From a virus, in IMG/VR virus record IMGVR_UViG_3300030060_003575, positions 11,142-75,141 of that record: a stretch of 64,000 bases of DNA. One strand, 5' to 3'. The notes below the pieces were generated by a model. That model did not search any database. It had not been told where the DNA came from and saw only the letters and a list, made by a program, of their open reading frames with translations. Within the stretch, counting starts at the first letter, position 1. Each line of letters starts with the position of its first letter. The translations under genes were made by a program, and so were the position numbers. This document shows, in pieces, positions 10,122 through 46,346 of the stretch.

Positions 10122-11572
10122 GTCATATCCTCCTTTAATTTTACGTAAACGCTTTTATTTATTCTGTTTTCTTCAAAGTATTCCCCAATAGATTTCTTCC
10201 ACCAATTGTAAATAGTTTGTTGTCCCTTCTGGGTTTTCTTTCTAACCTCTTGAAGTAATAATGTTTTATGCACCCATCCATCGTTACTGTCCATATCACG
10301 ATATATTGCTTTAAACACTCCTAAATTCGCTGTTTGTGCCACTGCTACCTTCTCAACCCGAAGTGCCTCATCTAGCCAAGATACGAGACTCTTATAACAT
10401 TGTCGAACAATCGAGGCCGCTTGTTGCACATTTTTCTGTGTAACAATAAATCTTTTGCTTTTATCCTTTATACTTGGGGCTTCCGCTACTGCACACAATA
10501 CTGCCAGTTTTTGGATATGTTTCAATATCCTGTTAATAAAAGTTTCAACTGCTTGAAACACTTCTGGTCTACTATGGCTAATATATTCCTCCATTAGAAT
10601 ACATTCACGCAATAAAGCATCTCTCGCATCAGGTGCTATCTTTATCACCTTAAGTGGGTCTTGCCCTACTTCATCATAACGTTCCTTTACAGCATCATAA
10701 ATCGTAGCAATACTTTTTGAGTATTTAATCTTCGGTGCTTCTTTTTGCTGCACAGTACCATAATCAGAAATTAACTTTCTTCTCATTTTCTTCTGCACAT
10801 CTTGTGGCACTTCCCATATAAATATCAAGAGTCTTTGCAGAACACCCTTTTCTGTAATAACACTTGTTAGTGTCTTTGGGATATATGATGTACCATAAAC
10901 TGAACGCTTGCATATACATTCTATAGGTTCATCACCCTGCTTCAACTTCTTAGAGATAACGAAAGTTTCTCCCCACATGGTATTCATAAATGTATTCAAA
11001 TACACAATTGCATTTTCTTTGTGTTGTGATTGTTTAAACACACCAGAATACTCAAACTCATCCCAGATTGCCATACCTTCTCCATGTAATTGCCCATAGA
11101 TAGGTACATTAACGTCAATCATTCTTGTCCTGCCATCTTCTTCTTCTACTTCTTCTCTTCTTTGCTCAAAGGAACCAATCAATGCAGCGTCTGTATAGTC
11201 GGTAATGTCAAACACGTCAAGATTAGTCCCGTGCTTTTCATTAATTAACTTAAACGCCTCTTCTATTATTGGTAGATACCAATTTGTTAGGGTTGATTTA
11301 CCAGTTCCTGAGGTTTGCAACCACAATATCTGTAATCGGGTATCATCAACGTTGATACCACTAGGTATTGCTATCATATCTTTAATTACTTGTCCTACCA
11401 TTGCGAAAAATGATAGGGTTGCGGGTGTATAATTATAATTAGATGCTTTAACCGCATCATTAGTATAACTAACCGCTACAGCAGGTAGAGTGATTTCTGT
11501 TTCACTCTCCTGCATTCCATTATCTATGAAATCATAGTACATTTCGTCTTCATCTGTATATCGTCTATTCAT
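10118..11572 (-). CDS. MCM-like AAA+ ATPase (putative replicative helicase)
   Basis: Walker A SGTGKS, Walker B IWDEF, arginine-finger-like LQRLL, sensor-2-like RILKHIQKLA and a C-terminal winged-helix-like segment. Confidence 0.65.
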   Translation of the reverse strand: MNRRYTDEDEMYYDFIDNGMQESETEITLPAVAVSYTNDAVKASNYNYTPATLSFFAMVGQVIKDMIAIPSGINVDDTRLQILWLQTSGTGKSTLTNWYLPIIEEAFKLINEKHGTNLDVFDITDYTDAALIGSFEQRREEVEEEDGRTRMIDVNVPIYGQLHGEGMAIWDEFEYSGVFKQSQHKENAIVYLNTFMNTMWGETFVISKKLKQGDEPIECICKRSVYGTSYIPKTLTSVITEKGVLQRLLIFIWEVPQDVQKKMRRKLISDYGTVQQKEAPKIKYSKSIATIYDAVKERYDEVGQDPLKVIKIAPDARDALLRECILMEEYISHSRPEVFQAVETFINRILKHIQKLAVLCAVAEAPSIKDKSKRFIVTQKNVQQAASIVRQCYKSLVSWLDEALRVEKVAVAQTANLGVFKAIYRDMDSNDGWVHKTLLLQEVRKKTQKGQQTIYNWWKKSIGEYFEENRINKSVYVKLKEDMT

Positions 11573-12258
11573 ATTGTCACCTTGTCTTCACTATTTAATG
11601 TGTCTATTATTCTTTGTGCTAATGTTATTCCTATTCCGTCTATTTTAGTTAATTCATCAACTGTGGCCTCACCTATTTCCATCAAGGAGCCAAAGTCATC
11701 TATTAGTATTTGTGCTTTTGTTGTACTTATTCCTTTTATTGTTGCTAACATGTTTATTCTTAGGTCGTCTGTTGTTATTCTTTTCATCAGTGTTGGGCTT
11801 ATTACATCTCTATTTATTGGTCTCATCTTACATATTGTTGTCATCAGTTTTGCTGCTTTCTTTGGGCCTTCAACCCAGAATACTTTTACATCTGTGTCTA
11901 AGGTTATTTTTCCTATTGCGCCATAAAATTTATTTATTAATAAATGGCTAGGAATGTTAATATTAACGTAGTCTGGATAGGCTAGTGCCTGATGGATAGA
12001 ACCATGTATAACAAGAATACAATGCTCAAAATATCTATCCATATTATCTAATTGATTCCACAATCTCTTGTTAATAACAGATTGTAGAAAGTCAATAGTA
12101 GATTTTGCTTCAAAGCAAACATCACTAAATACATAGTCACCAACCTCAATCCATTGTTTTTCAGTCATAATGTTTAATGCTATACATTCTCTTTTGACTG
12201 CATTAGATAAATCAGAATTTTCCCTACTATCTATAATTAACTTATTCATTCTAACCAC
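11569..12258 (-). CDS. ERCC4/XPF-family structure-specific nuclease with HhH
   Basis: IIDSRE, GDY, EAKSxxDFLQS, and two C-terminal HhH motifs (IKGIS, IDGIG). Confidence 0.85.
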   Translation of the reverse strand: MVRMNKLIIDSRENSDLSNAVKRECIALNIMTEKQWIEVGDYVFSDVCFEAKSTIDFLQSVINKRLWNQLDNMDRYFEHCILVIHGSIHQALAYPDYVNINIPSHLLINKFYGAIGKITLDTDVKVFWVEGPKKAAKLMTTICKMRPINRDVISPTLMKRITTDDLRINMLATIKGISTTKAQILIDDFGSLMEIGEATVDELTKIDGIGITLAQRIIDTLNSEDKVTI

Positions 12259-13387: not shown

Positions 13388-13691
13388 CCTTAAAATTTAC
13401 ATTTGCTGTTTGTAGTTCTTCTTTTATTATATCTGCTATTTTATTATTTAATTGCCTTAATACTTCTCCTTGGAAAAACTCACCAAAAAGCATGTCCTCA
13501 TATATTGGAACATCCCATATTAGGTCTACCTTAGACTTAACATCTAAGTCATCATACATCTCACTAGACATAGTAGTTATTATTTCTGCTACGTTACTAA
13601 TCTCTTGAAATGTCCATGTCTTTTCTTTTAACTTACTTCTTACCTTTTCGCCTATTCTCATAACCATGCACCTTCTTCTGCCGCAGGGCAT
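13290..13691 (-). CDS. hypothetical protein (start probably near 13662)
   Basis: ORF coupled between the primase and nuclease genes. Confidence 0.55.
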   Translation of the reverse strand: MPCGRRRCMVMRIGEKVRSKLKEKTWTFQEISNVAEIITTMSSEMYDDLDVKSKVDLIWDVPIYEDMLFGEFFQGEVLRQLNNKIADIIKEELQTANVNFKDDDKDEVPKRSVGRKPPKKRTTNEKSDSKKQD

Positions 13692-14539
13692 ATACTCATA
13701 AAACTACAATATTGGCATGTATTGTAATAATACTTAGGGTTGAACTCCTGTAACTCATATGCCTTTATTAATTGTGTAATGTTCTTATACACCGCAGTTA
13801 TACTTTGTTTCTTAACTGCTTCTACCTGTAGATAATTAGATTGTGGATAATACCAAGCCCAATTTGTAACGGGTATATTAGGGTCTAATCCATTATCTAA
13901 CAACACTTGCTCTGGAGTATTCTCTATCAATATCTTGTAAAAGGCTAATTCTTTACGCATCATAGTTAATTTATAATCTTTCCAAGGGCCAGTCTTTAAT
14001 TCCATAGGTATATACTTACCATCCTGAACAAACATCCTATCAATTATACCTTGTAAATGCACAACATAATCCCTTTCTAAGACACACTTAGGATTATACG
14101 CATGTGGTATTGTGATTTCTGCATCTAGCATAATCTCATTGATAACTGGTAAATACTCATCTACAGTATCATCCTCTTTAGCCTGTAGGAATCGTTCTGC
14201 TTCAAATATTGATATAGTCTTATACATCTCAGTGTAATCATCTATCGGATGCAGACCCATGTTATAAGTCACTAACTCATCATAACTTAAATTCTCTGCC
14301 TTCTTAACATCAAAGTCATTGAAGAAATCCTCTCTACTATTGTGTACCGCAGTACCTTTAATCATAGCCTCCGTTGTTGATTGAGGTAACCTCAATGGAT
14401 ACGAAAACTCATACTTCTTAGGACACCAGTTAAAGGTTCCAAAAGAAGACTTTGTTATTTTTAATATTGGGTTCTCCGGGTTACTATATTCTGCCGGATA
14501 CCATTTATATGTATATTCTCTCATTTTACCACCACTCAT
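13658..14539 (-). CDS. Cas4-like PD-(D/E)xK exonuclease
   Basis: WCP...GIIDR...ELKTG...CxxCxxxxxC four-cysteine Fe-S arrangement. Confidence 0.8.
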   Translation of the reverse strand: MSGGKMREYTYKWYPAEYSNPENPILKITKSSFGTFNWCPKKYEFSYPLRLPQSTTEAMIKGTAVHNSREDFFNDFDVKKAENLSYDELVTYNMGLHPIDDYTEMYKTISIFEAERFLQAKEDDTVDEYLPVINEIMLDAEITIPHAYNPKCVLERDYVVHLQGIIDRMFVQDGKYIPMELKTGPWKDYKLTMMRKELAFYKILIENTPEQVLLDNGLDPNIPVTNWAWYYPQSNYLQVEAVKKQSITAVYKNITQLIKAYELQEFNPKYYYNTCQYCSFMSICPAAEEGAWL

Positions 14540-15443: not shown

Positions 15444-16238
15444 TCTACTCTCTCCCAATGTTTTTCATACTTAGTATTAAATCTAAACATCCCGCCTATG
15501 TCATCTAGGTATTCAATTACATATACTGGTAGATACCAATCATGTTCTACATTTACTACCATTGCTTTTTTGCTGGTTAGTCTATTTACTATTATATCAT
15601 TTATTCTAAAAATTGTCATTTATATATTCCCCTTCTTTCTAGCATACAAATATTTTGCTGCTTCATTGATGCATCTAGGACACAGGTTGCCATACATTGT
15701 TGATTGTAAAGCAATTACTATACCATCGGTGTCATCTTTACCATCATAGGTCTCACAATAAAAACACGGTTTCATTATTCTTCCTCCCATAAACTTTCAT
15801 CCCAAGGGTTTACCATGACGATGTAATCATTGACAAAAACATTGATACAAGGAATACAAATACTACCCCCGTCTACCTCAACATATTGTCTTATACCAAA
15901 TATTGTTCTATTGGTATGATTACACACAACACAAGTTTCTATTTGGTGTTGCGATTTATCGCCTGCAAACCATATGGTCATTCTTCTTCTCTCACCTCAA
16001 CGAATAACCAAGCACCAGTTTGCATACATTTACATCTCACATTTTCACTTCCTGTTTACAATAAGTACACAGGCCTTCATCATCAACACTACGATGATGC
16101 TTATTATATTGACAATTACAATAATACTTTCTCATTTTAATATCTCCTTACTTTCTCATCTTGTAATGACCTTAATAATGCATGAACAAATACAACATAA
16201 AAGGCTACTATAGGTATCGTACATAAAAGTTCCGTCAT
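15440..16238 (-). other. six coupled micro-ORFs between the polB halves
   Basis: Manual translation: 16238-16137 (33 aa, hydrophobic), one from 16135 (32 aa, Cys/His), a 20-aa ORF, 15981-15775 (68 aa, two CxxC), 15775-15620 (51 aa, two CxxC) and 15619-15440 (59 aa). Starts and stops overlap or abut. Confidence 0.6.
15775..15981 (-). CDS. small zinc-finger protein
   Basis: CVVC...ICIPC. Confidence 0.6.
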   Translation of the reverse strand: MTIWFAGDKSQHQIETCVVCNHTNRTIFGIRQYVEVDGGSICIPCINVFVNDYIVMVNPWDESLWEEE

Positions 16239-29249: not shown

Positions 29250-29874
29250 TTATTATTATTTTATCTGCTACTTTTTCTTCATTAAACCAACGTTGAATCC
29301 ATTGCGCCCCATATCCAGCAATCGCAACGTGAGTAAAATGTAACACTTCCTTCTTTCCCGATTCGTTAAAGTTTTCACCTTGACAGGAAAAGGAACCTTC
29401 TGGCCCCGTAAGAAATGTTTCACTAAACTTAGGGTCTGTTAAATAACTGATAAGTGCTCCATTGCGACCCTGCGCCCTCAGGTCTAACCACTTAGTTTTA
29501 CAATCATCTTGAAACCCTTCTGCATAGAGAAGTTTCCGTACTGCTAGATTATCTGCACAACATACAACTAAATCATATCCTTCTATTTGTTTTCTGGTTA
29601 CGATTGGAAATTGAATCCCAAGTCGGATACCAACATCATTGTAATGATTCATACATGTTGTTTCTCTTTTCATAGCGGAAACCTTCATCATATCCAGAGA
29701 CCCTACTGCATAGTTTTGATAACTTAGGTTCTTTTCTTCTACAGTATCTGGGTCTGCTATCGTTATTTCATATAGTTCTGTCTTGTGTAAAAGCGGTGCT
29801 AGAAAACTTCCAATACCGCCTACACCAATTATTAATATTTTTCTTGTCATTTTAATTACCTTATCCCTGCACAA
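29242..29874 (-). CDS. ThiF/MoeB/E1-like adenylating enzyme
   Basis: IIGVGGIGS, DxDTVEEKNLxxQ, K, VVCCADNLAVR and a later Cys (FSC). Confidence 0.9.
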   Translation of the reverse strand: MCRDKVIKMTRKILIIGVGGIGSFLAPLLHKTELYEITIADPDTVEEKNLSYQNYAVGSLDMMKVSAMKRETTCMNHYNDVGIRLGIQFPIVTRKQIEGYDLVVCCADNLAVRKLLYAEGFQDDCKTKWLDLRAQGRNGALISYLTDPKFSETFLTGPEGSFSCQGENFNESGKKEVLHFTHVAIAGYGAQWIQRWFNEEKVADKIIINV

Positions 29875-30788
29875 AATCCTTCTACATCCAACGTTGATAG
29901 TTTATCCTTATCTATATTGAACATAGGATATAGTTTCTTAGTTGTCAATCTTTGTGCTACTGCTGTGCATTTGCAAGCATCACAAATTGCCTGTTGAGTA
30001 TGTTCAACCTTACCAATCTTTCTAAGCATAGAGGCTATCCAAACAGCAGAAGCCATATGACTCCTTGTAAAATGAATATCTCTCAACGTTAGATAATCAT
30101 GGATATAATTTACAACCGTCTTTGTTTCCGATGTAAACTCAATCGAGGCATCTAAGTCAGAACATATTCTATCAACCCAAGGATTAATAGGCATGTTTTG
30201 CAGTATGTTAGACTTGCCTAAATGTCTAGCAAAATGTCTAGCATACTTAGATACCTTATGTGCATCTTCATTGTTTTGTTCTGCTATTTCAGATATTGTT
30301 ATAGGAACCCCATTTTCTCTCAAACAAATAACAACAATCGCACATGCTCGTAATGGCAATGTCACTCCCCTTAACTTATGGTCTAGATACAAAGAACGAT
30401 AGTAACTGTGTACTCTGTCCTTTAACCCATGATTTGGTAGGAATGGTGACATAACCATATTACATTCTAACAATCCCTTTTGAATAGAGGTTTCATGTGA
30501 ACTACTTCTAAATCTCTTATTAGTCCTTCTAAGTTGTCTACTCAAACGACTGTTATCATCATTACCAATTAGTGACCCTAATTCTCCGGGTCTATCTATT
30601 TCATTCTTATAGGTAAAATTACCTGCTTTCAATTGTTCATAGTCAATGGTTCGGTTTGTCTTATCCTCAAAGATATTACGAACCTGCACATAACCACAAT
30701 CATCACAGACTGTTTCACCCATTCTATCATCATAACTAAAATTATTTCCATCACATTCTTCACATTTCATGAAATCACCGTGTCCCAA
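29856..30788 (-). CDS. tfb: transcription initiation factor IIB (TFB) homologue
   Basis: Zn ribbon CEEC...GETVCDDCGYV and two cyclin-like repeats (PITISEIA; TQQAI). Confidence 0.85.
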   Translation of the reverse strand: MGHGDFMKCEECDGNNFSYDDRMGETVCDDCGYVQVRNIFEDKTNRTIDYEQLKAGNFTYKNEIDRPGELGSLIGNDDNSRLSRQLRRTNKRFRSSSHETSIQKGLLECNMVMSPFLPNHGLKDRVHSYYRSLYLDHKLRGVTLPLRACAIVVICLRENGVPITISEIAEQNNEDAHKVSKYARHFARHLGKSNILQNMPINPWVDRICSDLDASIEFTSETKTVVNYIHDYLTLRDIHFTRSHMASAVWIASMLRKIGKVEHTQQAICDACKCTAVAQRLTTKKLYPMFNIDKDKLSTLDVEGFCAGIR

Positions 30789-39714: not shown

Positions 39715-40296
39715 TTATTCACGCATATTAACTAGCAAAAGAACCAAGTATCCTATTAGGTCTTTTACTACGTCTTCATCAGATTCTAATGATGCATTAC
39801 CTTGCATCAACCTGTTCAATTTATCATCTATGCGAACTTTCAACTGTTCTGTCTTATCAGCCCTAGAAAATATTCTTATTGGCTGTAAAGCGGAATCACC
39901 ATATTGGTCATTCTTATCAAGGAGAAACTGTGTTATTTCTCCCATTGTCTTTGAAATCTTAAAACTGGATTCGTCTTGGCCCTTCACAGGCTTGGCCTGC
40001 TCTTTCGCCTTATTATACTTACCCGCTATCAGATTAGGTTGCATATGTGTTCCCCATTGAGAGGAACCCATTATCTTTTTAAGATAAGGTTCATTTATTA
40101 TCTTCTCTTTAGATTGACTCTTTGGTTTTCTACCACCATTTCTTTTACTGATTGTTCCTTGAGCCTGTAGTCTGTAAATGCGTTGTCTTACAGAACCGAC
40201 TGTTCTATTCATTTTCTTGGCTATTGCTATCGCAGTTAGCCCTTGCTTCCACAGTTTCATTAACTGTGTTTCTTCTTTCTTTGTCCATTTCGTCAT
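39715..40296 (-). CDS. HTH protein fused to a DUF1599/nucleotide-modification-associated domain
   Basis: N-terminal KWTKKEE...IAKKMNRTVGSV; C-terminal KNDQYGDS...RIDDKLNR...DVVKDLIGY. Confidence 0.7.
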   Translation of the reverse strand: MTKWTKKEETQLMKLWKQGLTAIAIAKKMNRTVGSVRQRIYRLQAQGTISKRNGGRKPKSQSKEKIINEPYLKKIMGSSQWGTHMQPNLIAGKYNKAKEQAKPVKGQDESSFKISKTMGEITQFLLDKNDQYGDSALQPIRIFSRADKTEQLKVRIDDKLNRLMQGNASLESDEDVVKDLIGYLVLLLVNMRE

Positions 40297-40329
40297 AAAA
40301 TCACCGATGTTAATTATCTCAGTTTCTTG

Positions 40330-40700
40330 CAGAGTGTTGTTTCCACAACATTTCTACAAGTCTGGAAACGACATAATGATGCGGTTAGCATCACTAACTC
40401 AGCCATATTGCCCCCATTCGTTTTCGTTTCCATTTTTCCATCATTTACACCCCCTGCTCAAAAGGAAGGAAGGAAGGAAGGAAGGAAGGATAGAGAGAGA
40501 GGGGTGGAAAAGTATGTAATAATGTAAATATATTATAATGTATTAGATATATTATCTAACTCTTCCATTCTATCTCACTTTCATTTCCAACTCCAATTGG
40601 AAACGTGGAAACGTTTGACCCCCTTATCATATCATATAGGATATGTCATATGCATAAGTGTATAGTATATACATATATTATACATAGAGAGTCTTCCCGG
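40330..40700. other. candidate replication origin (TGGAAA boxes, purine tract, AT-rich element)
   Basis: Several TGGAAA(C)/TTTCCA boxes in both orientations, (AAGG)7 and an AT-rich stretch at 40510-40560, at the edge of the strand switch. Confidence 0.4.
40462..40489 (+). repeat. (AAGG)7 microsatellite within a polypurine tract
   Basis: Read directly from the sequence. Confidence 0.95.
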
Positions 40701-41025
40701 TACATATCGAATCAATGGCGCGATTTAACATCATAACATTTTACGCCATAAATTCTGATTAGTATATACTGGCCTTTGGTGGAATACGTGCTTGTAAGGC
40801 CATTGATTGTAATTGCCACCAACAATTCTATAGATGGCAGGGGATATATAAGTCGGCGGCACCCCTCGATGCCCCTCGTCTATAAATATCCTATTTGTCG
40901 AACCATATGGTATCAACAACTTTGTCCAGTTGAAACCTGATTTTGAGGAGTCCGACAGGAAAGGGCGACTTTATCCCTTTCCTGCCAGACAAGAATTGCT
41001 GCTAACTAGGCGTGAAAGAAGGGTT

Positions 41026-41535
41026 TTATTCCTCTTCCTCCACAAAGTCGTATTCTGCACAAGCGGCAAGTCCATCTAGTGAACCATCCCATGAGCCGTC
41101 CTTGTAAAGTTCCCTTGCCGTCTGCTTTGCTTTCTTAGCGAGGGTGTTTGCGTAATCATTAGCATCTGTGAACACAGGTGGCCCTGCGCTCTTTCCGTGC
41201 TTTCTGAGCAATGGCTGAGAATACTGCGCTGTGCTCTCAAAGAACGTATATGCAGCCTCTCGGATTGCTTCAGCAGCAGAATCAACCACTACTGATGCAG
41301 CAGCAGGTAGTAATCCTTGATTACCTCTGCGCCATACAACCTTTCCTGAAGGGAAGTCCTTCAGCATTGCTTTAATGGATAGAGCCAAAGCAGCCCTATT
41401 ATCCACATTGTTGTCACCAGTCTCTATTAGCATAGTTGCTAGAGACCTTACATCATCGGGGATTGTTCCATCAACGTCACCCTCGATGCATGAGTTTACC
41501 TTCATCTTTACCGATTCCCAATTTACTTCATCCAT
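41026..41535 (-). CDS. cassette-borne hypothetical protein, paralogue of 43265-43798
   Basis: Likely start MDEVNW downstream of a TATA box; shares HGKSxG...YA...WDGS with the second cassette gene. Confidence 0.75.
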   Translation of the reverse strand: MDEVNWESVKMKVNSCIEGDVDGTIPDDVRSLATMLIETGDNNVDNRAALALSIKAMLKDFPSGKVVWRRGNQGLLPAAASVVVDSAAEAIREAAYTFFESTAQYSQPLLRKHGKSAGPPVFTDANDYANTLAKKAKQTARELYKDGSWDGSLDGLAACAEYDFVEEEE

Positions 41536-41595
41536 AATATTCACTTTCCTATTTTTTCTTTCTTTGCCCGTTAGCGGCATAGTTGTCAATTCTCT

Positions 41596-41614
41596 GGGAT
41601 ATATAAGAGGTTTC
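41596..41614 (-). promoter_or_regulatory. archaeal BRE/TATA promoter of cassette A
   Basis: Minus strand reads GAAACCTCTTATATATCCC; the same CTTATATATCCC 12-mer recurs at 40841-40852. Confidence 0.6.
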
Positions 41615-43264
41615 AAACAAAGCGAAACCATATGGTAATGAGAGTTTTTTCAGGATACAAAGAAACATGCATAGAAAAACGCGCGAATTTTCCTTAGTCT
41701 AAATTCTTAGTGTGTTTTCTGCACCTCAGTTTCCACTGGTTTTGTTATTTAACATCACTTCTTTTACGCCCATTACATGACCATATGGATAGTTAGTACG
41801 TAGTTACGAGAGGGTCTATGAGAGTCGAGGACTCGTTTAGACTGCTATAAAGTCGAATAGACGTAAACTGCGTTAAGCAGTAGTAGACGGTAGCATAGGG
41901 TGAAGTAAAAGAAGGATTGCGGGTGACTGGTCTACGTACTCAGTTTCCCGATACATGAGGATATTTTACATGCTTACGCATAATTAACACCATATGATAG
42001 CAGTGTAACGTTAGTTAAACGTAATGAATAATGGTGTTTAATGAAACACCAATGAAATGTAGTAACGATACGTGTAACGAGGTATCTGATTGCTTCTACG
42101 AAGACGCTACGCTACAATCATATGGTGTTGATAAAACATAGGTGGCACTGAAAAGGTACCGCTTGTTTACAATATCCTTATGATTTGCTCCGCTTTTTAC
42201 TATAGCCTATGCTACGTGCTTAATGCACTGTCGCAAAAAGAGTTCCCAAATCATATGGTTGGTTAAGGTTTCCTCTGGTTACCAGTGTGAGGTGCGGAAC
42301 TAAGGTGCATTACGCACCAACGAAGGTGGTTTGTTCCGGCACGAACATGGTAAGCGGAGGTGCCAATTATACAACCTCAATGGGATTGGTCTATTCATCT
42401 CATTTAACCAACCATATGGTTATAATTCCTCTGGTATACGATTAAAGATGATTAGACACATTAAGTGTCCATCAGGATACCAGAGGAATATATACCCTAA
42501 TAAAAAAAATAGGGTCTTGCGTCATAAGGCCTATATCCCTTAGCCTGTAACTTGACAGCACACCTCGTCCGGTACTACTGTGCGAGAGAAAATATGAATT
42601 CTTCATAATCCCTACATAAATGTAAACGGACGCTAAATGCGTCTTATCGTTTTATATACATTTATTCTCGCCCGTTGTACCACGACGATTGTGCTGCAAT
42701 TTACAGCCTAACGCCTATAAAACCTTATCTCATACCATATGGTCGTAGACCTTAAGGGAACGTTAAAGGAATCTAACTCCGCGCACTTGTACGCATTGTC
42801 TCATGCACCTTTGTTGGTGCTAAATGCACCTTTTCGACAATGGCACGAAGTCCACTTCCGTTATATCCTTTAACTTCTTCGACCCATATGATACTAATGA
42901 AATGGTGTTTGTAAAAAAAGTCGCGGTAACTTGTTAGCGTGACTACTCTACGTTAGTGCGTTAAGCACTAATCTAGATGTAGTAGCATAGGGTTTTTTAC
43001 AAACAAGTATCTGATAGTCCAAGTATTCCTATCATATGGGTTTAGGTTCCAAAGATATACAAGAGGTGAAGATAAAAGAAAAATGCATTAAGCATGAGCC
43101 GTAGGCGGTTCTTTTATTATTGGCGGAAGCCATGCTTCACCTATTGTATAGCACGGAACAACTACCCTCAATTGGGGTCATGTTCTCTAAAGTGAGAACA
43201 TGTTACCATATGGTCATAACTTTGTGAAAAAGACCAGAAGAGGTTGGTGGCGACTAAAACCAAC

Positions 43265-43798
43265 CTATTCTTCTGAACCCCCATTATCGGTGACGGCTGG
43301 ATAGCCATCATCGGTGTACGACCCGTCCCAGTAGTATCTCTTATCGGTACCATTGGTAAACGCATTGAAAGCGGCATTCAAGAATAGCCTCTCTTTCTTG
43401 GTCATATCATCTGCGTATGCAGATGCACCATCATCCATAGTGGAGTAAAGAACCCCACCGGACTTTCCGTGTGTCTTCGCAGTACCAGCCACTAGAGGGT
43501 ACACGACTGTTGCCATGTTATCCCTGAAGGTTGCTAGGTACTTGTCGAAATCGGACTTAACGGCAGTTGTCATTAGAGACTTTCTACCGCCACCAATAGG
43601 TGAATTGTCCAAATCAGCGAATACTACGCTGATGCTCGACCAGTGCCTCTTCCTGAGGTCAGGCTGTGCATCGCCTATTGCGAAGAGACCATCTACAATG
43701 ACCCTTCTTCCCTCATGCTCTGGGTTCGCGTCAAACCACTCATTGACGTGTTCTTTCTTGTTGTTCCATACGCTGTCTTCCATGCTGTAATCAACCAT
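43265..43798 (-). CDS. cassette-borne hypothetical protein, paralogue of 41026-41535
   Basis: GGAGTGA RBS; THGKSGG...AYADDM...YWDGS. Confidence 0.75.
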   Translation of the reverse strand: MVDYSMEDSVWNNKKEHVNEWFDANPEHEGRRVIVDGLFAIGDAQPDLRKRHWSSISVVFADLDNSPIGGGRKSLMTTAVKSDFDKYLATFRDNMATVVYPLVAGTAKTHGKSGGVLYSTMDDGASAYADDMTKKERLFLNAAFNAFTNGTDKRYYWDGSYTDDGYPAVTDNGGSEE

Positions 43799-43854
43799 AT
43801 CTATCACTCCTGTGAATTAGGTGGTTTAGTCGCCACCATAGCACTATTTTCAAT

Positions 43855-43868
43855 GGTATATTTAAGGT
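43855..43868 (-). promoter_or_regulatory. TATA-like promoter of cassette B
   Basis: Minus strand reads ACCTTAAATATACC; equivalent boxes sit at the same position in cassette C (ACCTTAAGTAAA, near 44480) and cassette D (ACCTTATAAATT, near 45005). Confidence 0.55.
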
Positions 43869-44099
43869 ACAGTTTAAACAAAGTAACGTACCATATGGGT
43901 GCAGGTTTAAGAATGCGTAGCATTCTCATTTAGTTGCTCGGCAACGATAAACGAGCAACAAATGGCAAACCAAAGCCCCGTGGGAATGTTTGAGGCACGT
44001 AGTAAGATGCTGCTGGTGTCCTTAGACTTGGCTTAATGCCAACGAGTCCAGCAGCACCTGTTATCTACTTCCATATGGTCATACTTTGTTAAACAGACC

Positions 44100-44465
44100 A
44101 TAATCGCTCAACAATGATGCAACGATTTAAACTTGCGCTAACATCAATTTTACAAGTCGTTGTCTTACTCACTATTGAGATGCATCGTTTTTTGGTAACT
44201 GCCAGAAACGTGCAAAACTGGCTCAAGGATGGATGAGTGGATTCGTTTCCTTACCCTCAAGGTTACATGGGTGTTAGTTCATGCCATTAATTTTGCATGG
44301 GCTTTAACCCGTACCTACCAATAACCGACCCGCTAAGGTCATTGTAGTGCCTGTCTTTTTCTTCGACCGACTCCCTGTGCCGCTAAGCACCGATTATTGT
44401 GCCTTTCACCCTAACAACGGTGATATTCAGCCAATCCGGGTCACTCCGTCAAGTGACATAGCAAT
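44100..44465 (-). ncRNA. putative structured ncRNA occupying cassette C
   Basis: Same promoter and end architecture as the gene cassettes, but no ORF of 60 aa or more; multiple hairpins, two with an identical CGCTAA loop on + (TTAGCG on -). Confidence 0.45.
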
Positions 44466-44678
44466 AATATTGATGGTTTACTTAAGGTAATGTTTAACAA
44501 AGTTACATTACCATATGGGTTGGCATTAAGCCAATGTTTAGACATTCCCTCATTTATCTGGCTGCGAGTACCGCTAGGCTTACATTAACCTCTGAAGGAG
44601 GTCTAAACAACCTCTTATCTTCCGAGGTTAATTGATACTCTCATCCATATGGTATTGAACTTTGTCAACAATACCTGA

Positions 44679-44879
44679 CTAACTGGAATCATCTCCAGTT
44701 AAGCCAAGATAATCATTCAATGCTAGATTCAAATCATCCATGACTTGACCCAAATCATCACCTGATACACGTAGTTTACTGATTGAAAGCACCAGTGAAG
44801 AACCAGATTTCATATGCTTGACTTCAAGCACATATTTGGGTTCGTTGATTTGTTGAACGATTGTTTTTTCTTCTGTCAT
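44679..44879 (-). CDS. cassette-borne small hypothetical protein
   Basis: GGTGA RBS, 66 aa, inside cassette D. Confidence 0.65.
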   Translation of the reverse strand: MTEEKTIVQQINEPKYVLEVKHMKSGSSLVLSISKLRVSGDDLGQVMDDLNLALNDYLGLTGDDSS

Positions 44880-46346
44880 AATATCACCAAAGGTGGAGGG
44901 GCCATTGAACCAAGTGACTACTTACAGGCATTGAATGCTCGGCGGCAATATACTGTATTATCCAGTGTTGGTTGGCCCCTCTATATCAATAGGTATTATG
45001 TAATTTATAAGGTAATGTTTACAAAGCCCATTACCATATGGTTTAGTAAGTGACGGTCTTACTTGCCAGGGAAGGTACGTATACGCGCTTCAGGAACGTA
45101 AGTCGTTTAAACGCATTAAGCGTTAGACAAGTGAACGCGCGTAAACGTCCTGGAACTGGCAAGTAAGAGCAGGAACGCACGTTAAAACCCCGTTAAACCT
45201 GAAGGGCATAAGGAACCTCCTTTAAGGCACTCTTGCTTAACGTAACTTAGACAAGACATATCTTCCGTTAAACGCTTTTGCTGGTACTTAATGTACCTAC
45301 CACTCCATATCTGTCTTGTCTAACTTACGTTAAGCAAGGTAAACCTTAAATCCAACTCCATATGATACGAGGTAGGATTCATCTGGGCTTTAGGCCCAAA
45401 CTAAGGTGGTATGAATCCTTTGAAGTATCTTATGAGGATAGGATAAGCAAGCGGTATATCCACAAGGGAGAAACCTATGCAATATTCCCACCATATGTTC
45501 ACATAAGTGGGCGAACTCAATGGGGATTTATGGGCAATTACCTCCATCTTCGTTCATGTCTTATATCAAGACATTGTGTGTATTATCATATGCCCATTAC
45601 CATATGGTTCCAGCATCGCTGGAAGATAACTTGCAATGGAAGCATACAGCAATGAAAGACGCATTAAGCGTCCACTTAGGTGTAGCAGGCTGTATGCATC
45701 CTAAATGCAAGTTATTCACAGCCCCATTTGAGGATATACATCCATATGGTTATTAATCACTTTCTACAAGAATGTCCTCCAAGGGCTTGTAAAATGTCCT
45801 AGAGACGCATTAAGCGTCTAACAAAGGTGAAGGGACATTTTAAGGGGATTCGCCGTAGAAAGTTACAACGCAGTGTTAATCACCTCAGGTTGCTTAACGC
45901 TTCGCTACAACCATATGCTTTGCATTCGATTTTTTTTCTTATTAAACATTCGTTTGTTTACCCGATTTTGGCATAAGATTTTGTTCTACCTAAGAACACT
46001 TTGATATAGAAGCATCTTAGATGCGCGTATAGAGAAGGCTCAGGTGTGCTAAACATATTTTAATTAATTAAAAATAGATTCGCGGTGCTTCAAGGATACA
46101 AAGAAACAAGTATGCTCTAAACACTGCTATTCAACCATTGATACACTGTGATTAAATAACAAACAAAGGCTTATTCTGGAAATGCACAAGTTTTATATAG
46201 AAAAAAAACGCAAGTGCCGGATAAATTACAGGTCAAATTTTGAAAAATAAAGGTCTAAAAAATTCCGCCAAAAAAATGGGGTAAATAGAGAATGAAAAAA
46301 CTACCATTAAAGAAGGTAAAATTAACAAAGTTTAGGTGGTGGGACT

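Follow-up and report, generated by a model that had tools for sequence, protein, structure and literature searches.

What the four small modules A to D, which share inverted ends and each carry a promoter and one cargo, are and how they come to be rearranged is the question raised by the locus described here. The DNA analysed, called the window throughout, is the 64-kb stretch from position 11,142 to 75,141 of IMG/VR virus record IMGVR_UViG_3300030060_003575, a record of 75,141 bp with an estimated completeness of ~75%, and the modules lie in an array at 40.9-45.9 kb of this window. Our analysis indicates that A-D probably act as autonomous transcription units of archaeal type within the accessory part of a marine, magrovirus-like virus, and that they are exchanged at a palindromic joint flanked by hairpins.

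A sequence-only reading of this DNA had described module ends of the form CTTTGT...ACC and GGT...ACAAAG accompanied by a short palindrome, and this signature is present at all eight module ends, with CCATATGG at 40903, 41628, 43206, 43891, 44071, 44511, 44645 and 45034; the inverted match described as perfect in C is indeed perfect, over 13 nt. The window contains 14 copies of CCATATGG where 1.0 is expected, a count reached by no shuffle, and 13 of these lie within 40903-45749. The eight matches of the composite motif CATATGG-N-[CT]TTTG[TA]-N-ACC in the whole 75-kb record are exactly the eight ends of A-D, and nowhere in the record except at the cassette promoters does a TATA-like box stand close behind an ACC. 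When near-variants of the palindrome are included, CATATG is found at 21 places between 40904 and 45912, which divides the array into ~20 units jointed by (A)CCATATGG(T). The four modules are thus real, and they are only four of the ~20 units (numbers 1, 11, 13 and 15) that carry the same palindrome. The ends and promoters of A-D, all four of whose minus-strand TATA-like boxes read as first described, are as follows.

40903..40910, no strand: junction palindrome CCATATGG, outer array boundary and 3' end of cassette A
40909..40937, plus strand: 3'-side end hairpin of A, GGTATCAAC / GTTGAAACC, one mismatch, CTTTGT in the loop
41599..41606, minus strand: TATA box of A, TTATATAT
41609..41635, minus strand: promoter-side hairpin of A with junction palindrome, GGTTTC / GAAACC, loop GCTTTGTTT
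43206..43235, plus strand: junction palindrome with 3'-side end hairpin of B, GGTC / GACC
43858..43898, minus strand: TATA box of B (TTAAATAT, 43858-43865) with promoter-side hairpin and palindrome, GGTAC / GTACC
44071..44099, plus strand: junction palindrome with 3'-side end hairpin of C, GGTC / GACC
44478..44518, minus strand: TATA box of C (TTAAGTAA, 44478-44485) with promoter-side hairpin and palindrome, GGTAATGT / ACATTACC
44645..44675, plus strand: junction palindrome with 3'-side end hairpin of D, GGTATTG / CAATACC
45003..45041, minus strand: TATA box of D (TTATAAAT, 45003-45010) with promoter-side hairpin and palindrome, GGTAATG / CATTACC

Each cassette end folds on itself, with a 5' arm (GG(T)xxxx) that begins with the GG(T) of the palindrome, a loop containing CTTTG and a 3' arm (xxxxACC) that closes in ACC. 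The stems vary by end and by genome while their two arms remain complementary, as in GGTAATG/CATTACC, GGTAC/GTACC, GGTTTC/GAAACC, GGTAG/CTACC, GGTGT/ACACC and GGTTCTA/TAGAACC, and 33 ends from five genomes yield 17 distinct stems. Across 49 unique promoter-side ends of relatives the mean perfect stem is 5.43 bp, compared with 3.49 +/- 0.13 bp (maximum 3.98) in 2000 permutations of the 5' and 3' halves. Compensatory stems persist in orthologous A cassettes down to 47% protein identity, with promoter-side examples such as GGTTCT/AGAACC and GGTATGC/GCATACC, and the 3'-side hairpin element of A likewise follows orthologous A genes in relatives. Because the stems differ yet stay complementary, the joint can be read as hairpin - CC ATAT GG - hairpin. 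At promoter-side ends only 0-2 nt separate the 3' arm from the TATA box. This covariation does not support the proposal that the two ends of a cassette pair with one another to occlude the promoter: every end has its own covarying stem, and the promoter-side end does not belong to the cassette's own RNA because it lies upstream of the predicted transcript start.

The palindromes are also the places at which the array is rearranged. With A as reference, L002 (contig 3300030450_002194, L001/L002) carries B, C and D in inverted orientation, and the order A-B-C-D of the window becomes A-B-D-C in L002 and A-D-B-C in L004 and L005. Among 80 metagenome loci retrieved through the A family, B shares the orientation of A 16 times and runs against it 34 times, the corresponding counts for D are 11 and 34, and A is flipped relative to the flanking helix-turn-helix (HTH) gene in 8, with distances across the A-family loci ranging from 305 to 2842 nt. 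Comparison with four contigs that are 94-99% identical to the window revealed units that had been moved, lost, added or inverted, and 21 of 28 internal homology breakpoints, among them 44512 at the promoter end of C and 44646 at the 3' end of D, fall <=12 nt from the centre of a palindrome (2.6 expected, <=10 in 10,000 trials). One DNA sequencing run contains the joints 41781>42119 and 41988>44510, which share 7-8 letters, and another shows a different left neighbour at 41780. At the outer boundary, homology in close relatives continues through the palindrome at 40903 into the flank.

The same ends were also found around unrelated small open reading frames (ORFs) of 42-240 aa in other magrovirus-like contigs (L011, L012, L016, L022 and L037), so that the search for this end motif around different cargo, suggested with the sequence-only reading, was borne out. 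Where A loci include enough upstream sequence, 50 of 71 pass a strict perfect-stem test, nearly all others have the palindrome and a CTTTG hairpin whose stem is bulged or short, and only three lack the palindrome; the notion that the cargo might always stand without these ends in relatives does not hold. At 620-1000 nt, many of the metagenome contigs with an A homologue are roughly as long as a single cassette, a pattern that assembly breaks at variable joints, or free cassette circles if there are any, would produce.

Each cassette carries one cargo, which we list here in array order.

41026..41538, minus strand: gene A, 170 aa, conserved all-helical protein
43265..43798, minus strand: gene B, ~177 aa from an ATG behind AGGAG (the ORF list starts at a GTG at 43807)
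44226..44456, minus strand: manA-like structured RNA, cargo of C, an RF01745 match with no ORF after it
44679..44879, minus strand: gene D, 66-aa acidic protein, preceded by a ~110-nt leader with a hairpin

Three of these cargoes are expressed in the sea, as seen in contigs from two metatranscriptome studies, a type of evidence in which a contig end cannot prove a 5' end. RNA contigs cover A (40981-41578 and 40998-41395), B (43277-43836 and 43371-43822) and the manA-like RNA (44260-44418). The upstream contig end of A, 41578, lies 28 nt past the first T of its TATA box, that of B, 43836, lies 29 nt past it, and the manA model begins 28 nt past it in the window and 27-28 nt past it across the window, L002, L004 and L005, so that three independent cassettes agree on the spacing between box and putative start. 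The A and B contigs stop short of both end hairpins. No RNA contigs were found on D or on the non-coding units, which is not evidence of silence. In archaeal TBP/TFB promoters an A/T-rich box of 8 bp lies ~25 nt ahead of the transcript start. A TATA-like box is kept at nearly all A-family loci, and given the archaeal gene content of the virus the A/T boxes are best read as archaeal TATA boxes. A reading of the sequence found no -35 hexamer 16-18 nt from the A/T box, as a sigma-70 early promoter would have, and sigma-70 or Bacteroidetes promoters were set aside on the spacing to any -35 element and on the archaeal gene content. The description of A-D as self-contained expression cassettes is supported by these contigs and by contig ends and RNA-model starts that lie 27-29 nt past the first T. 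In one metatranscriptome the manA-like RNA has the highest contig depth of the stretch; contig depth is not an expression measure.

The remaining members of the array are sixteen non-coding units (41636-43205, 43899-44070, 44519-44644 and 45042-45917), most of which lie in two blocks.

41636..43205, no strand: the nine units between A and B, non-coding and strongly folded, with the palindrome as boundary of each; not cassettes
45042..45917, no strand: five non-coding units that close the array, with the same palindrome

These units have the palindrome at both ends, without the CTTTG hairpin or a recognisable promoter, and they are exchanged precisely at the palindrome. They run from an initial GG to a final CC, many are self-closing so that successive stems are separated by ATAT, and they fold better than shuffled sequence (z ~-2 to -9). 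Most contain a hairpin of the form NNN(G/A)C-ATTAA-G(C/T)NNN, in either orientation and with covarying stems; it occurs in 57 of 97 units from five genomes and was absent from the other magrovirus-like arrays scanned. By blastn, the closest IMG/VR relative matches only 6 of the 20 window units, namely A-D and two of the non-coding ones, and no two window units match each other. Pairwise covariation over single-sequence minimum-free-energy folds of the non-coding units gave no clear picture, with 50 compensatory and 63 one-sided pairs beside 259 broken ones, to which the mosaic nature of the units contributes; clear compensatory stems are seen in individual pairs. No G.U strand bias relative to the orientation of the pentaloop hairpin was detected in these units. 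A second type of small unit, 85-125 nt long with the end-hairpin loop GCGTTAGCATATT (or GCGAAAGCATATT) and covarying stems, is present elsewhere in magrovirus-like arrays, at L011:1996-2287, L012:5670-5772, L016:8034-8123 and L073:8725-8853.

Taken together, these features suggest a common layout in which a unit would open with an end hairpin, continue 0-2 nt on with the TATA box, start its transcript ~28 nt past the first T, and run through the cargo and a cargo-specific 3' hairpin to an inverted end hairpin. Units would join head to tail by CC-ATAT-GG, the GG opening one end hairpin and the CC closing that of the neighbour. At the promoter-side joint the 3' arm of the hairpin would take the position immediately ahead of the TATA box that belongs to the TFB-recognition element, which would make this arm part of a cassette-specific promoter. 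With its own promoter and stop signal, each unit could work in any position and orientation. The joint would be the site where units are exchanged, inverted, deleted and inserted, since a palindrome without polarity would allow both orientations and let exchange at the joint produce all of these outcomes, with the hairpins presumably forming in single-stranded DNA. As to catalysis, our leading guess, held with some reserve, is that the fold-prone joint undergoes break-and-rejoin or template switching as the DNA replicates, by means of the virus's own repair set of PD-(D/E)XK nuclease, ERCC4-HhH nuclease and ATP-dependent ligase. Both nucleases are candidate actors at such joints.

11569-12258 and 13658-14539, minus strand: nuclease pair of the replication module, given in the order ERCC4-HhH (short XPF-like) nuclease, then Cas4/RecB-like PD-(D/E)XK nuclease

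Several observations weigh against this picture or parts of it. Seven of the 28 breakpoints lie inside units, which indicates that general recombination acts here too. The transcript starts rest on contig ends and on a covariance-model boundary, neither of which is proof of a 5' end. No enzyme has been tied to the joint: profiles for tyrosine (PF00589) and serine (PF00239) recombinases had no match in this record or in those of four relatives, all of them incomplete, the Y1 HUH transposase profile (PF01797) had none in this incomplete record, and no DDE transposase was found among the Pfam matches of the window. The incompleteness of the searched records (estimated at 50-75% complete) also counts here, and absence of such an enzyme is not proven. 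Of the earlier suggestion that the ends bind a common factor or recombinase, what is supported is that the ends are recombination points in outcome; the search proposed with it for a tyrosine, serine, DDE or HUH enzyme found none in these incomplete records. As for catalysis, the 8-bp core is short for homologous exchange and is invariant down to 43% identity of protein A. This invariance, together with conserved loops on covarying stems, fits a dedicated sequence-specific enzyme better than it fits our leading guess, and a still unrecognised site-specific enzyme is an alternative that we consider possible, if on the unlikely side.

The closest known system is that of the promoter-early stem-loops (PeSLs), mobile regulatory cassettes of the T4-type phages phi1 and RB49 (Arbiol et al. 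2010, PMC2839356). In both cases a hyperplastic region holds small accessory genes without known function that are flanked by a repeated promoter and stem-loop (here with the motif confined to the array), this signal delimits the insertions, deletions and replacements that distinguish close relatives (here at 21 of 28 breakpoints), and each gene travels with its own expression signals. The cassettes described here differ in having an archaeal TATA box rather than a sigma-70 promoter, an invariant 8-10 bp palindrome as joint, a hairpin with covarying stem and conserved CTTTG loop at both unit ends, frequent inversions, and a structured RNA among the cargo, with non-coding folded units on the same joints.

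This precedent, in which promoter and stem-loop are likewise joined, underlies the rival explanation that survives best. Under a strict PeSL model the joint would be a regulatory boundary only, a promoter-upstream, terminator or insulator signal whose repeats are passively shuffled by homologous or microhomology-mediated recombination, and no protein would recognise it for recombination. The failure to find a recombinase in five incomplete records favours this view, as do the sub-unit breakpoints, which show general recombination at work, and the T5 run on the sense strand inside the 3'-side end hairpin of B. It accounts less well for the sense-strand 3' ends of A, C and D, where no consistent T-run was found, and for the non-coding units, which have neither promoter nor CTTTG hairpin and nevertheless keep the palindrome and break precisely there, with only 8-10 bp of identity shared at their joints. 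We consider passive shuffling a serious but somewhat doubtful account of the locus.

A further reading would be that magroviruses carry a still unrecognised recombination system that reads the folded joint and exchanges strands within its symmetric ATAT core, a proposal that we regard as speculative and rather unlikely. If true, it would provide an archaeal-virus counterpart of integrons that also allows inversion, and its enzyme would also act on the non-coding hairpin units or give rise to them. Like an integron, the locus is an array of small mobile units whose boundary conserves structure over sequence, as does a folded attC; in contrast to an integron, no IntI-type integrase was found (PF00589, five incomplete records), each cassette has its own promoter in place of a common Pc, and each unit has two inverted ends rather than one attC and occurs in both orientations. 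In shufflons and invertible segments (Rci on R64; Hin, Gin and Cin), as in the array, neighbouring segments are flipped and reordered at short repeats. Such systems depend on a dedicated recombinase and on sites with polarity, and what they rearrange is portions of a single gene. In the present array the site is perfectly palindromic and the units are complete genes that are also lost and gained, and the incomplete records searched gave no recombinase.

Transposition offers a further explanation of the inverted termini and of the two orientations. Elements resembling TA-targeting transposons or miniature inverted-repeat transposable elements, with ends TGG...CCA, could insert at the TA of CCA-TA-TGG and thereby regenerate the joint, so that the array would grow with random orientation. 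The HTH domain at the N-terminus of the neighbouring gene product resembles HTH_28 / IS630-like domains, at weak E-values, and could be taken to point the same way. Its C-terminal domain, however, is helical and weakly MazG-like, with no nuclease fold; no DDE, Y1, tyrosine or serine transposase was found in the searches described above, the lack of a Y1 HUH match in this incomplete record also setting it apart from IS200/IS605-type transposition; the units are not multi-copy, as the lack of blastn matches between them shows; and no unit was seen outside the array, where the lone CCATATGG in the 64-kb window, at 15970, sits in a coding-like stretch. We therefore judge such an origin improbable.

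The weakest rival, that the array is one long precursor with stem - AUAU - stem joints as RNA processing sites, draws on the GG...CC units, their self-closing stems separated by ATAT and their stability relative to shuffled sequence, but is very improbable given that the promoter-side hairpin lies upstream of the predicted start, that the A and B contigs end short of both end hairpins, that the non-coding units show no G.U strand bias, and that both cassette orientations occur within one array, so that no single precursor carries all cassettes in sense.

Our preferred reading, of autonomous units exchanged at the hairpin-flanked joint, would explain the turnover of accessory genes in magroviruses through a conserved cassette boundary. 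These viruses, which infect hosts that have not been cultured, rank among the most abundant in the surface ocean. The combination of CCATATGG, CTTTG-loop hairpin and TATA box would offer a sequence handle for finding accessory genes and promoters in archaeal viral metagenomes, and the joint a defined DNA substrate with which to seek new recombination or promoter-recognition activity. A blastn search of the array against 50,697 phage records gave no match, and a literature search with CCATATGG as term returned cloning primers only. The published magrovirus descriptions that we searched do not mention palindromes, promoters, hairpins or intergenic regions, nor 'cassette' where this was looked for.

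The cargo itself largely agrees with what had been read from the sequence. The A family comprises 35 homologous clusters from marine metagenomes, mostly of 168-169 aa and with no Pfam domain recorded; an AlphaFold2 model of A is all-helical (pLDDT 82.8) and has no fold match in the PDB, and tblastn with protein A gave no match. The claimed paralogy of A and B is borne out at the profile level only: hhalign of B against the A family gives 92.9% with E 3.8e-7 over 141 columns, compared with E 0.14 by BLASTP alone, so that B is, at that level, a distant paralogue of A. Pfam, PHROGs and NCBIfam returned no match for A, B or D. In L002, L004 and L005 the orthologues of B are 65-87% identical and those of D, whose 66-aa ORF was confirmed, 56-76% identical. 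A second, partial A-like frame lies outside the array in the closest IMG/VR relative (L002:13893-14084, 46% identity over 67 aa).

The putative non-coding RNA of C, which indeed lacks an ORF, matches the manA model. It covers the full RF01745 model (1-192 of 192) and keeps the conserved stretches CUGAAUA, GGUAG and GGGUA...AAUCC, at 39.2 bits (E 1e-7 to 1e-8), below the gathering score of 55.2; the C cassettes of relatives score 54.3 (L005:6022-6245), 50.2 (L004:3601-3828) and 41.9 bits (L002:6259-6492). About 150 nt of further hairpins follow 3' of the RNA. The manA motif is known from T4-like cyanophages, marine metagenomes and two gamma-proteobacteria, mostly in 5' untranslated regions (Weinberg et al. 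2010, PMC2864571). The RNA of C shares with it the full model, conserved stretches included, and a marine origin; it differs in scoring under the gathering threshold, even in L005, in standing alone behind its own TATA promoter with no gene downstream, and in belonging to an archaeal virus. An RNA so far tied to cyanophages and bacteria would thus be placed as a stand-alone transcript of an archaeal virus.

The assignment of the virus, for its part, is based on gene content. The array occupies a divergent gap between minus-strand genes at 8-40 kb, which include a family B DNA polymerase, an ATP-dependent ligase and a ribonucleotide reductase, and plus-strand genes from 46 kb. Pfam searches with 56 ORFs identified ERCC4 with HhH, a PD-(D/E)XK nuclease, an RFC C-terminal domain, DNA_pol_B, ThiF and a TFIIB zinc ribbon. 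The ERCC4 profile matches only archaeal genomes among the controls, the best tblastn matches of the polymerase are haloarchaeal tailed viruses (25% identity), the PolB domains lie on adjacent ORFs so that PolB looks split, and the sequencing runs that contain the stretch are marine. Magroviruses have been described with a ~100-kb linear genome, a near-complete archaeal-type replication set and, in group B, a split PolB (PMC5434244). The gene content fits a magrovirus-like virus of archaea, in line with the magroviruses of marine group II archaea. We also considered a crAss-like or N4-like phage, whose virion RNA polymerase would use the hairpins as promoters, and rejected it because the 2735-aa protein has no DFDxD motif or PHROG match and the gene content is archaeal.

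Two further genes of the window bear on promoters and on the surroundings of the array.

29856-30788, minus strand: TFB/TFIIB homologue, 310 aa, full-length and divergent, zinc ribbon plus core
39715-40296, minus strand: HTH gene beside the array, N-terminal HTH and a highly conserved C-terminal helical domain (KNxQYGDS ... DLIGYL)

The first matches TFIIB in the PDB (E 3e-6 over residues 20-288) and in NCBIfam (E 2e-18), and such a viral TFB homologue could give the virus its own promoter specificity. The HTH family has 862 clusters, many on contigs of 90-100 kb, and its gene stays adjacent to the array in all close relatives. This protein was considered as the recombinase and rejected, since it gave no nuclease or recombinase signal and looks like a DNA-binding domain fused to a helical domain; in its structural model the N-terminal HTH is good, and the C-terminal bundle is of low confidence, with a weak resemblance to all-alpha pyrophosphatases (MazG-like). 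The array is flanked by long non-coding stretches rich in A/T (40297-40902 and 45918-46346). Cumulative GC skew turns between the minus-strand and plus-strand gene blocks, with its minimum at ~44-46 kb, and the array or its flanks may contain a replication origin.

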